IMG/VR virus record: IMGVR_UViG_2654587792_000035
Span: 1 to 7,341 of that record
Source of the DNA: a virus
Lineage: Duplodnaviria; Heunggongvirae; Uroviricota; Caudoviricetes
Length of the DNA stretch: 7,341 nucleotides
Direction: 5' to 3' (one strand)
Both the position numbers and the translations under genes were made by a program. The notes below the pieces were generated by a model. The model was not told the origin of the DNA and did no database searches. It saw only the letters and a list, made by a program, of their open reading frames with translations. Shown in pieces: positions 2,717 to 3,539 of the stretch. Within the stretch, counting starts at the first letter, position 1. Each line of letters begins with the position of its first letter.

Positions 2717-2920
2717 ATGAGAAATCATACCATACACCCGCAAGGGCGGGACTCGTACAACCTGAATAAATACATCTGGCGTTTTATCGCCCTGAGCACG
2801 GCACAACCGCGCGTGATTACCATTGAGGCCAGCAGCGAACAGGAAGCACGCCAGCAATCCCCGGCTGGCTGCGTGATGGTATTCGCCGCCCGTATTCGTC
2901 AGGGGGGGGGCCATGCCTGA
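2717..2920 (+). CDS. Small early protein (67 aa); tentatively Icd-like (host cell division inhibitor family)
   Basis: ATG at 2717 with GAGG 5 nt upstream, inside track ORF 2627..2920. Product MRNHTIHPQGRDSYNLNKYIWRFIALSTAQPRVITIEASSEQEARQQSPAGCVMVFAARIRQGGGHA. The family assignment is from memory of Icd-like proteins in P4-like prophages and is not verified. Its last codons contain a G9 tract and it overlaps the next gene by 8 nt. Confidence 0.55.
   Translation: MRNHTIHPQGRDSYNLNKYIWRFIALSTAQPRVITIEASSEQEARQQSPAGCVMVFAARIRQGGGHA
2902..2910. repeat. Homopolymeric G9 tract spanning the end of the Icd-like gene and the RBS/start region of the next gene
   Basis: Nine consecutive G at 2902-2910, read directly. 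Loss of one G puts the upstream reading frame in phase with the downstream gene and removes the TGA at 2918-2920 from the frame. Confidence 0.9.
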
Positions 2921-3233
2921 TATGTCAAATTACCAGTACCTGATTAATCCGCATTTTAACTGTGAGCATGATATTGCTAAAAAGGTTTATTCCGCTGCGG
3001 ATGGGGCTACTGACAATATATCAATGGCTGTTGCGTCAATTGGTAGCCTGATGTGGCATGCGTCAGAAAATGAGGACTATGACGAAAAGGCCATGCGCAT
3101 TGATATGGGTAATATTGGTTTGTTACTGGCAATGCTTGGACATTTTGATATTTCGTTACGGTGCACCATTGAAAATGCCACAGATGCATTAAATGCTATA
3201 AAGAAAGCGAATACTGATTCAAATCGGGGATAA
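2913..3233 (+). CDS. Hypothetical acidic protein (106 aa), translationally coupled to the upstream gene
   Basis: ATG at 2913 overlaps the preceding stop (2918-2920); the G-run serves as a Shine-Dalgarno element. An alternative in-frame ATG at 2922 is also possible. No recognisable motif; composition is acidic and helix-prone. Confidence 0.6.
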   Translation: MPDMSNYQYLINPHFNCEHDIAKKVYSAADGATDNISMAVASIGSLMWHASENEDYDEKAMRIDMGNIGLLLAMLGHFDISLRCTIENATDALNAIKKANTDSNRG

Positions 3234-3239
3234 ATAATC

Positions 3240-3539
3240 ATGAGAACATATTTATCTGGCTTGACTGCCAGCGGTTATGCACACCCCCAAATTATCCCCG
3301 GCGCTATTTATCTGGATAAGAACGGTAACAGAGTAACGGTAAAAGAACTGATGTTTGACCGTGTGTATTTTATTCGTGATGGCTATTCATTTCATAGTTC
3401 GCTGAACGTGGAGATCTTTATTAGCAGATTCAGGCGGGAAATCCCGCTTTCCAGAAAAAACCATGTGTCACGTGTGAATGTGGATAAAAAACTACAGGAA
3501 CTGAAAAACATGATTGCCGCGTGGAGAGAGCAGAAATGA
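3240..3539 (+). CDS. Hypothetical protein (99 aa), translationally coupled to the downstream replication gene
   Basis: ATG at 3240 preceded by GGGGA; its stop TGA (3537-3539) overlaps the ATG (3536) of the next gene in an ATGA arrangement. No recognisable motif. Confidence 0.6.
   Translation: MRTYLSGLTASGYAHPQIIPGAIYLDKNGNRVTVKELMFDRVYFIRDGYSFHSSLNVEIFISRFRREIPLSRKNHVSRVNVDKKLQELKNMIAAWREQK

Follow-up and report, generated by a model that had tools for sequence, protein, structure and literature searches.

The window analysed here, a stretch of 7,341 nucleotides, comes from a PICI-type phage satellite of Escherichia coli of about 10 kb. Its genes follow one another in the order int, alpA, a divergent YlcI/YnfO-family gene, an Icd-like gene, ORF1, ORF2, the Pri-Rep initiator gene, an iteron origin, SSB and a DUF1441 TerS-like gene, with domain matches for Int, AlpA, the Icd-like protein, the D5-type initiator, SSB and DUF1441. 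By gene content, origin and size, the island has what characterizes a PICI: int, alpA and pri-rep, a 3′ iteron origin, a size of ~10-15 kb, few structural genes and no lysis genes. A circular record of 10.79 kb corresponds to the whole island. In strain D5 the full island (~10 kb) lies between cspD/yljB and clpS, and its close relatives sit between cspD and clpS. The features that concern us are the following, in window coordinates:

2214-2519, minus strand: YlcI/YnfO-family gene, 101 aa, divergent from the operon (NCBIfam NF041551, 1.6e-17)
2538-2621, no strand assigned: putative early-operon control region, a promoter-like site plus repeats (consensus and repeat matches only)
2717-2920, plus strand: Icd-like gene, the first of the operon, 67 aa, pI 10.3 (NCBIfam NF033153, phrog_6196)
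2902-2910, plus strand: run of nine G in the last Icd-like codons, just 5′ of the ORF1 ATG; Shine-Dalgarno of ORF1
2913-3233, plus strand: ORF1, from ATG 2913 to TAA 3233, 106 aa
3226-3239, plus strand: ORF1-ORF2 junction, with a GGGGA Shine-Dalgarno (3226-3230), the ORF1 TAA and a 6-nt spacer, then the ORF2 ATG
3240-3539, plus strand: ORF2, from ATG 3240 to TGA 3539, 99 aa
3536-5353, plus strand: Pri-Rep initiator, 605 aa, with D5_N, DUF5906 and Pox_D5 domains
5360-5600, no strand assigned: replication origin directly 3′ of pri-rep, with at least 10 GGTGAACAGT iterons in two opposed sets and AT-rich DNA

The Pri-Rep core is 51% identical to residues 338-789 of P4 alpha, a region including alpha's origin-binding C-terminus, while its N-terminal 140 aa are common to initiators with unrelated cores. 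The iteron origin, with a GC content of 0.38, is organized as PICI origins have been described (PMC6092414). At the start of the operon, the Icd-like protein matches NCBIfam NF033153 at 1.7e-19 (69.6 bits against a cutoff of 25). Ahead of it, a sigma-70-like promoter (TTGACG, 17-nt spacer, TAACAT) occupies 2581-2609 on the plus strand, and TCGGTGTGTTTCA / GTGTGTTTCA is present three times around it, directly at 2538-2550 and 2586-2595 and inverted at 2609-2621. This combination makes 2538-2621 a putative control region for the early operon. The divergent YlcI/YnfO-family protein, whose N-terminus appears to resemble a ribbon-helix-helix motif, is likely to be a regulator of the early promoter. 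Homologous divergent small genes are found ahead of the same operon in an Erwinia locus (L008) and in a further locus, L015.

Downstream of the promoter-like site and up to the end of pri-rep (2610-5353), no terminator-like site was found on the plus strand, and every operon junction has a Shine-Dalgarno sequence within or just past the preceding gene. After induction of the island, a single transcript therefore probably yields all four proteins, Icd-like, ORF1, ORF2 and Pri-Rep. Scanned in full against Rfam at E up to 1, the window gave no match, hence no C4/CI-type antisense RNA. The stretch formed by ORF1 and ORF2 has a GC content of 0.41 and is more AT-rich than its flanks. A reading made beforehand from the sequence alone had described these two genes as tightly coupled through overlaps of 8 and 4 nt. 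Both overlaps exist, but they belong to the outer junctions: the Icd-like gene and ORF1 share the 8 nt ATGCCTGA (2913-2920), and the ORF2 stop overlaps the Pri-Rep ATG at 3536 by 4 nt (ATGA), whereas ORF1 and ORF2 do not overlap at all and are separated by a 6-nt spacer. Throughout, the start and stop signals are laid out in a way that suggests translational coupling. The Shine-Dalgarno is conserved at each ORF start across the alleles and islands compared; the run of nine G is unique to the window's allele, other alleles reading GGGGGTGTG instead. Before the genes of the ORF2 family (DUF4222, see below), the arrangement GRGGA(A)-TAA-6 nt-ATG recurs in Sakai Sp7, CFT073, Klebsiella and L015, regardless of which gene lies upstream. 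Databases also contain fused Icd-ORF1 products (P0001, P0020).

Are these two small frames really genes? Their shortness and the lack of a curated family for ORF1 could be taken to mean that one or both are non-coding chance frames. The evidence contradicts this and leaves the idea with practically no probability: the Pfam match of ORF2 lies above threshold, the length of ORF1 is maintained between genera whose proteins share 25-66% identity, most dN/dS comparisons give values below 1 and a Shine-Dalgarno is conserved at each start. ORF1 and ORF2 are thus genuine genes. Among E. coli alleles dN/dS is mostly 0.16-0.55, which indicates that both are under purifying selection, and the sole frame disruption found is a nonsense codon in ORF1, in a single island, which bears IS1 and Mu transposase genes as well. 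The sequence-only reading had placed two coding genes in the early operon of a satellite, after an Icd-like gene and before the initiator. This holds, and their coding status is borne out by the DUF4222 match, by some 30 ORF1 relatives and by dN/dS. The two outcomes that it had named as speaking against its view, namely homology to housekeeping or structural proteins and frame-disrupting variation without conservation, did not appear: no such homology was found for ORF1 or ORF2.

ORF2 encodes a very basic protein (pI 10.13). Its residues 17-67 align to positions 2-52 of the 53-position Pfam model DUF4222 (PF13973), with a score of 60.5 bits against a cutoff of 27 (E 1.1e-16); RgdR/ECs1581 and C1493 reach 82 and 86 bits on the same model. 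This profile match places ORF2 in the DUF4222/RgdR family, as one of its divergent members. RgdR (ECs1581) is a 99-aa regulator of type III secretion and motility encoded by PICI/OI-51 (PMC3378721), and rgdR is present in all the E. coli PICIs analysed in another study (PMC6092414). The sequence-only reading had taken both genes as uncharacterized and as the best place to look for an undescribed function; for ORF2 this view has to be abandoned, DUF4222 being the RgdR/ECs1581 family (PMC3378721; PMC6092414). RgdR binds DNA non-specifically and alters LEE1, motility and Congo-red phenotypes: LEE1 is activated in the absence of Ler, motility is repressed and more Congo red is bound (PMC3378721). 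An RGD motif has been reported as important for its activation of type III secretion, and its orthologues have been listed at >77% homology over 99 aa (Flockhart et al., 2012).

How close, then, is ORF2 to RgdR? The RgdR proteins of Sakai Sp7/OI-51 (ECs1581) and EcCICFT073 (C1493) belong to the same Pfam family, and RgdR, like ORF2, is a basic protein of 99 aa (reported pI 10.09, against 10.1 for ORF2). In both Sakai and CFT073 its gene occupies the same site, directly upstream of the PICI initiator/primase gene with an ATGA overlap. The two proteins share the N-terminal SGL-x-x-SG and residues G21, D26, G29, R41, R46, G48, Y49, F60 and F64. Over the full 99 aa, however, they are only 31% identical (48% positives), below the similarity listed for orthologues, and residues 20-22 of ORF2 are P20-G21-A22 (PGA) in place of RGD, R20 and D22 being absent. 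G21 is the only residue of the RGD site that is invariant across six aligned DUF4222 proteins. The C-terminal halves are unrelated in sequence, and both are predicted to be helical. The structural model of ORF2 consists of a probable SH3-like small β-barrel (~20-66) followed by a C-terminal helix (81-97). Its confidence is low (pLDDT 61) since the alignment behind it is shallow, with 12 sequences at ≥85% identity. The folds that it matches are of a generic kind, FeoA and TraI outscoring the Tudor/SH3-like ones, and PDB sequence searches with ORF2 and with the DUF4222 profile gave nothing significant. Likewise, neither ORF2 nor a Klebsiella DUF4222 protein had a tblastn match among 50,697 phage records.

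The position of the DUF4222 gene, next to the initiator and overlapping it, recurs in all the E. coli PICIs compared. In the window, Sakai Sp7, CFT073, L011, L012 and the Klebsiella locus L003, the gene lies directly 5′ of the initiator with the ATGA overlap; in L015 a 190-aa gene lies between DUF4222 and the primase, and it is this gene that shares the ATGA. The window-type allele is paired with both D5-type and DUF927-type initiator cores, which argues against a partnership specific for one core. ORF2 would probably be a low-specificity DNA- or protein-binding accessory or regulator, co-produced with Pri-Rep. At the iteron origin it might tune initiation or copy number, and/or it might act on transcription, as RgdR does at LEE1 and flagellar genes. 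In EcCICFT073, the rep gene and ori are enough for plasmid replication (PMC6092414). As we read it, that construct was without rgdR, so the DUF4222 protein would not be essential for initiation, and a modulatory role remains compatible with this result.

P4 offers a precedent for such a role. Its Cnr protein, which is non-essential, regulates copy number and binds the alpha initiator at its C-terminal DNA-binding domain. Like ORF2, Cnr (ORF106, Pfam DUF5375) is a small protein whose gene lies directly upstream of a P4-alpha-related initiator gene, in the same operon, and by this shared position it could serve as a functional analogue of ORF2. The resemblance stops short of homology: P4 ORF106 scores 210.9 bits on DUF5375, a model that neither ORF1 nor ORF2 matches, and no BLASTP alignment is obtained between Cnr and ORF2. 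ORF1 has the same length as Cnr (106 aa) by coincidence, the hhalign probability being 0.05%. Since a DUF4222 gene and a faint DUF5375 (Cnr-like) gene occur together in L015, DUF4222 cannot be regarded simply as replacing Cnr.

ORF1 is a different matter. As the sequence-only reading had noted, it is an acidic protein of 106 aa (pI 4.78, with 15 acidic and 8 basic residues), and its status as an uncharacterized gene stands: no Pfam, NCBIfam or PADLOC model was matched, and it corresponds to phrog_15327 (2e-71), a PHROG without annotation. The profile and structure searches recommended at that time thus placed ORF2 in DUF4222 and left ORF1 without a significant match. The family comprises about 30 full-length relatives from several enterobacterial genera, all of 100-108 aa, at 25-93% identity and nearly all with a pI of 4-5.4. 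They share the core A-x-I-G-x-L-M ... Y ... D-M-x-x-I-G, in which G44, L46, M47, Y56 and G69 are invariant over 30 sequences, and ORF1 displays every one of the family's features. In the AlphaFold2 model (pLDDT 80), helices 19-51 and 58-105 form a two-helix hairpin. When this model was compared with PDB and BFVD by Foldseek, the hits were generic hairpins only (UvsY, occludin, EsxB, TraM), all at E > 0.5, and a PDB sequence search with the ORF1 profile gave nothing significant. Taking the model at its word, this is a family of undescribed acidic proteins of helical-hairpin type. The hairpin might yet be associated with the membrane, given two stretches of moderate hydrophobicity. Some relatives are annotated at source as “ubiquinol-cytochrome C reductase”, for which Pfam gives no support. 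HMMER also matched long repeat proteins (P0021, P0023, P0026), but these matches were inflated by the repeats and were discarded. Homology to same-slot or neighbouring small ORFs (ECs_1580, a Klebsiella 72-aa ORF and the 72-aa ORF of L017) was rejected at an hhalign probability of ~0.2%.

The genomic context of the family is constant as well. In all seven distinct contexts examined, the gene lies in the operon with an Icd-like gene on one side and a primase on the other, the latter of the D5 or of the Toprim/DUF927 type. No match was obtained among the 50,697 phage records with tblastn of ORF1 and its Klebsiella homologue, nor with blastn of the region against phage records, and in the searches made the family is found only in Enterobacterales satellites. 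Even there it is not universal: the ORF1 profile finds no homologue in the Sakai Sp7, CFT073, Shigella island and P4 loci, and in the Sakai Sp7 and CFT073 islands other small ORFs stand in its place, between the same conserved junctions. Judged by gene content, the ORF1 slot is a variable cassette bounded by conserved junctions. That its content varies between islands fits an accessory role towards helper or host. ORF1 would probably bind another protein, as a dispensable accessory in helper/host interaction and outside core replication.

On balance we lean towards an early operon in which ORF2 is a co-made accessory acting with Pri-Rep and ORF1 a protein-binding helper/host accessory. Several other explanations deserve to be weighed against it. 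ORF2 might act mainly on host transcription, countering H-NS-type silencing or docking RNA polymerase through a Tudor/SH3-like barrel; it would then switch on silenced horizontally acquired DNA, the island included, upon island induction. E. coli hns mutants have a derepressed LEE, are non-motile and have increased curli. The three RgdR phenotypes resemble this loss of H-NS, and both the non-specific DNA binding of RgdR and the AT-richness of the ORF1-ORF2 stretch are in line with it. Yet the H-NS link is itself deduced from phenotypes, the fold matches of the low-confidence barrel are the generic ones given above, with FeoA and TraI higher, and R20 and D22 are absent in ORF2. Moreover, a purely transcriptional role leaves the invariant overlap with pri-rep unexplained, and we regard this explanation as possible but unlikely. 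Slightly less likely still is that the Icd-like protein, ORF1, ORF2 and Pri-Rep form a phage-triggered growth-arrest module (superinfection exclusion or abortive infection), with the Icd-like protein as effector and the small proteins as sensors or co-factors. Its basis is a prophage locus of ECOR61 through which the phage accessory protein orf24 triggers cell death, with suppressor insertions in its Icd-like gene and in the two small genes that follow (Silas et al., bioRxiv 10.1101/2023.04.06.535777). Like the window, this six-gene locus has an Icd-like gene, overlapping small ORFs and then a primase. The two small genes are of 186 and 192 nt with overlaps of 8 and 1 nt, exactly as ECs_1578 and ECs_1579 of Sakai Sp7, from which we infer a PICI early operon of the window's design, the match being one of coordinates only; a DUF4222 gene would be among the six, judging from the Sakai arrangement. 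By gene size, however, these small ORFs match the Sakai-type cassette, from which ORF1 is absent, and the genes that were hit are not ORF1 homologues. Furthermore, the transposon insertions could have had polar effects, the effect obtained on reconstitution was called muted, and PADLOC-DB v2, searched at E up to 0.1, has no family for ORF1, ORF2 or the Icd-like protein.

Two further proposals concern ORF1. It could be a helper-directed antirepressor or derepressor, like P4 epsilon or P1 Ant, binding the repressor of a helper prophage so that the satellite switches on its helper. Epsilon, the P4 helper derepressor (95 aa), is encoded between the immunity region and cnr/alpha, in a slot that holds helper-interaction genes, and its gene shares 8 nt with the ORF before it, which is annotated as cI gene product. 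In P1, the antirepressor gene ant is translationally coupled to icd. The variability of the ORF1 slot between islands is also what helper-specific functions would lead one to expect. But ORF1, acidic and modelled as a two-helix hairpin, has no sequence or profile similarity to epsilon (homology was rejected at an hhalign probability of 0.14% for the family profile), and the P4 ORF preceding epsilon is unlike the window's Icd-like protein. In addition, the PICI literature consulted describes the helper inducing the island via alpA, not the reverse, and ORF1 is kept in islands with separate Bro-N or AntA antirepressor-type genes; the proposal is thus very improbable. The last one, which we consider slightly more improbable again, sees ORF1 as a small membrane-associated hairpin acting at the divisome, with or against the Icd-like division inhibitor. 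Two conserved, glycine-containing and moderately hydrophobic stretches (~31-50 and ~64-85) do surround an acidic loop, the Kyte-Doolittle maximum over 19 residues rises to 1.8-1.9 in the Klebsiella members, and the Icd-like gene lies upstream in all seven contexts. These stretches are nevertheless short and broken by polar residues, most members stay below 1.6, there is no signal peptide or lipobox, and the two long amphipathic helices of the model (33 and 48 residues) are typical of a soluble hairpin or four-helix bundle.

For the early operon as a whole, ORF2 adds a member to a known family, and ORF1 represents an orphan family worth testing. In a more ambitious combination, which at present appears decidedly unlikely, ORF1 would found a family of satellite effectors, the slot between the Icd-like and DUF4222 genes would be a general hotspot for small, exchangeable effectors in enterobacterial satellites, and the DUF4222 proteins would be xenogeneic-silencing antagonists acting on H-NS or RNA polymerase. 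If it were true, the target bound by the acidic ORF1 hairpin would come from helper or host, such as a repressor of the helper, a replication factor, or the Icd-like protein as effector of a growth-arrest module triggered by phage, and DUF4222 anti-silencing would explain the pleiotropic RgdR phenotypes. RgdR, the sole relative studied, alters type III secretion, motility and colonization in EHEC, and the native function of DUF4222 could tie satellite induction to virulence regulation. The Icd-like-to-DUF4222 slot is a concrete place to seek helper-interference, anti-defence and abortive-infection factors. ORF1 is a manageable candidate to begin with, given its short length, its conservation and its confident model. 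A large fraction of E. coli genomes carries PICI-type satellites, and an identical or near-identical ORF1-ORF2 pair occurs in 474 of 5426 complete ones (~9%).

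A compact satellite-type island was resolved in the window by a six-frame ORF list and profile searches, which together gave the following genes:

1-1239, tyrosine integrase (profile match)
1659-1868, AlpA (profile match)
2214-2519, minus strand, divergently transcribed YlcI/YnfO-family gene (profile match)
2717-2920, Icd-like gene (profile match)
2913-3233, plus strand, ORF1 (phrog_15327 match)
3240-3539, plus strand, ORF2 (Pfam DUF4222 match)
3536-5353, plus strand, initiator (pri-rep) of 605 aa (D5_N, DUF5906 and Pox_D5 domains)
5884-6306, SSB (profile match)
6572-7057, DUF1441 TerS-like gene (profile match)
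7054-7341, last ORF, 95 codons, open to the window end (phrog_1561)

The last ORF also gives a weak PADLOC match to BrxA (E 0.0085, 14 bits), probably by chance. The same DNA is found in E. coli chromosomes at 99-100% identity, and in strain D5 the island is flanked by cspD/yljB and clpS. The whole island also makes up a circular record of 10,790 bp deposited as an E. coli plasmid (NZ_CP148328.1; L020, 1-10790), with int, alpA, YlcI/YnfO, Icd-like, ORF1, DUF4222, initiator, protease-capsid fusion, tail assembly protein and DUF1441 genes, suggesting that the satellite may exist excised or as an episome. Between SSB and DUF1441 (6306-6572), most close relatives have about 2.5 kb of DNA that is missing from the window and includes a fusion gene for a ClpP-like prohead protease and major capsid protein; the window is collinear with one genome, 2017.18.02CC.

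On sequence grounds, ORF1 (106 aa, computed pI 4.78) and ORF2 (99 aa, pI 10.13) are both genes. The match of ORF1 to phrog_15327 covers the full length (2e-71), and for ORF2 the Pfam DUF4222 model gives 60.5 bits, its cutoff being 27. Among E. coli alleles, Nei-Gojobori dN/dS is 0.16-0.55 for ORF1 and 0.18-0.59 for ORF2 in all comparisons except one, which is based on just ten differences. Among 5426 complete E. coli genomes, 474 carry the pair, and the sole disruption found is a nonsense change at codon 8 of ORF1 in one island (L013), which has IS1 and Mu transposase genes. The DUF4222 gene of that island (L013, 4001-4627) is itself a hybrid, its first 12 codons being of the window type and the remainder of the RgdR type, which points to recombination within the gene.

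The sequence-only reading had placed two small genes between the Icd-like gene and the initiator in an arrangement suited to coupling, and this description is correct. The Icd-like gene runs 8 nt into ORF1 (ATGCCTGA), ORF2 follows after a 6-nt gap with a GGGGA Shine-Dalgarno 9 nt ahead of its ATG, and ORF2 overlaps the initiator by ATGA, with GGAG 9 nt before the initiator ATG. A promoter-like site lies at 2581-2609 on the plus strand (TTGACG, 17 nt, TAACAT), and no terminator-like site was found on that strand from there to the end of pri-rep. It is reasonable to suppose from this layout that ORF1 and ORF2 are co-transcribed in one operon and translationally coupled. A TCGGTGTGTTTCA-type repeat occurs three times around the promoter-like site (2538-2621). 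These TCGGTGTGTTTCA / GTGTGTTTCA copies, of which two are direct and one is inverted, flank the -35 and -10 hexamers and may serve AlpA or the divergent YlcI/YnfO protein as operator.

Both genes had been called uncharacterised, which holds for ORF1 but not for ORF2, since the latter falls in a recognised and described family. RgdR belongs to DUF4222 (PF13973; PMC10877973). The protein, ECs1581 on the Sp7/OI-51 island of O157:H7 Sakai, has 99 aa and a pI of 10.09. It activates LEE1 as well as type III secretion, acts as a repressor of motility, increases the binding of Congo red and attaches to DNA non-specifically (PMC3378721). According to Fillol-Salom et al., every E. coli PICI in their analysis encodes it (PMC6092414). 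ECs1581 and its CFT073 orthologue C1493 score 82 and 86 bits on PF13973, and in both islands the gene is directly upstream of the initiator with an ATGA overlap, exactly as for ORF2. ORF2 is 31% identical to RgdR, with an N-terminal SGL-x-x-SG and residues G21, D26, G29, R41, R46, G48, Y49, F60 and F64 in common, whereas PGA replaces the RGD tripeptide of RgdR. Judged by these features, ORF2 is a new but divergent representative of DUF4222/RgdR, a known family.

The initiator next to it is modular. Its residues 1-140, which have no Pfam match, share 50-98% identity with the N-terminal part of PICI initiators that are unrelated in the rest of the sequence (D5_N/DUF5906 type versus DUF927 type). 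Directly 3' of the gene, an AT-rich region (5360-5600, GC 0.38) with at least 10 iterons (GGTGAACAGT) in two opposed (inverted) sets is the probable replication origin, the layout being that reported for PICIs (PMC6092414). The initiator has no recognisable primase domain. Its core (141-605) is 51% identical to residues 338-789 of P4 alpha, which include the origin-binding C-terminus.

Nothing categorically new is seen in ORF1 or ORF2, and we infer their mechanisms as follows. For ORF2, direct data come from RgdR only (low-specificity DNA binding, pleiotropic regulatory effects). The invariant pri-rep overlap suggests that it would be made together with the initiator. In P4, the cnr gene lies upstream of alpha and controls copy number, its product binding the origin-binding C-terminus of alpha. 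This precedent, the pri-rep overlap and the alpha-like core lead us to favour, by analogy, an accessory factor acting at the origin and/or in transcription. This reading is qualified by the absence of similarity between ORF2 and Cnr, by plasmid replication from the EcCICFT073 rep gene and ori alone (PMC6092414), by the occurrence of one DUF4222 allele with unrelated initiator cores, and by locus L015, which carries a DUF4222 gene plus a faint Cnr-like gene. A rival reading is that DUF4222 proteins would mainly reprogramme transcription. The RgdR phenotypes would fit this, as LEE activation, lower motility and stronger Congo-red binding appear to resemble the loss of H-NS function.

ORF1 is an orphan, and a complete HMMER search of 1.8 billion representative proteins yields few true relatives. 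The profile search gathers about 30 full-length proteins (100-108 aa, 25-93% identity) from Escherichia, Klebsiella, Kluyvera, Erwinia and metagenomes, with G44, L46, M47, Y56 and G69 invariant. None of the 30 members matches a Pfam model, and ORF1 has no match in NCBIfam, PADLOC or a PDB sequence search. Its AlphaFold2 model, of good quality (pLDDT 80), is a two-helix hairpin (19-51 and 58-105) linked by a conserved acidic loop with Y56, for which Foldseek against PDB and BFVD returned generic hairpins only (E >0.5). Almost all members are acidic (pI 4.1-5.4) and their two conserved stretches are just moderately hydrophobic; a soluble hairpin forming a dimer or bundle is most likely, a membrane-associated one being conceivable. 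As far as these searches reach, the family is previously undescribed and satellite-restricted, and ORF1 is a reasonable experimental target. The sequence-only interpretation of the two genes is thus supported in part.

Synteny was compared in seven distinct ORF1-family contexts. All seven are int/AlpA (or HTH_17) islands with a rightward operon, an Icd-like gene upstream of ORF1 and a primase (D5 or Toprim/DUF927 type) at the operon end; most have a divergent small gene ahead of the operon. The E. coli, Klebsiella and L015 islands have a DUF4222 gene, which is missing from those of Kluyvera, Erwinia and locus L017. No ORF1-family gene occurs in Sakai Sp7, EcCICFT073, a Shigella island or P4. 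Between the Icd-like and DUF4222 genes, Sakai has three other small ORFs (61, 63 and 80 aa) and CFT073 four (76, 73, 73 and 77 aa). The junctions are kept whatever lies between. The Icd 3' end ...CGTATTCGTCAGGGGGTGTGCC|ATG is identical ahead of ORF1 and ECs_1578, GRGGA(A)-TAA-6 nt-ATG precedes every DUF4222 gene compared, and each of these genes ends in ATGA, overlapping the initiator except in L015. Such conserved junctions around differing contents indicate that ORF1 fills a variable cassette slot, DUF4222 being the fixed neighbour of the initiator. A tblastn search of 50,697 deposited phage genomes with both proteins gave no match, which fits satellite-specific genes. In Klebsiella (L003, 1-12321), the island with an ORF1 homologue and a 72-aa DUF4222 gene has phage capsid and tail genes on both sides; it may be a satellite that lies within its helper prophage.

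The variable slot, the conservation across differing initiators and packaging modules, and the acidic hairpin fold argue for ORF1 as a dispensable accessory protein acting by protein binding, and not a core replication factor. It could possibly be an epsilon-like or Ant-like helper derepressor, as P4 epsilon has an analogous position and the same 8-nt overlap, although the two share no homology. A partner of the Icd-like protein is also possible, as is a component of a phage-triggered growth-arrest module. In ECOR61, six linked genes, including Icd-like and primase genes, are required for death upon expression of phage orf24, and suppressor insertions map to the Icd-like gene and to the two small genes that follow it (Silas et al., bioRxiv 10.1101/2023.04.06.535777). 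These two are not ORF1 homologues, but their sizes and overlaps are those of the Sakai-type cassette, and from this match we take the ECOR61 locus to be a putative early operon of a PICI.

A run of nine Gs (2902-2910) lies just ahead of the ORF1 start, within the final Icd-like codons, where other alleles have GGGGGTGTG. A one-base change in the length of this tract would yield an Icd-ORF1 fusion, and fused products exist in databases (P0001, 171 aa, 36 members, all from Logan assemblies, and P0020); they could reflect sequencing error or real slippage.
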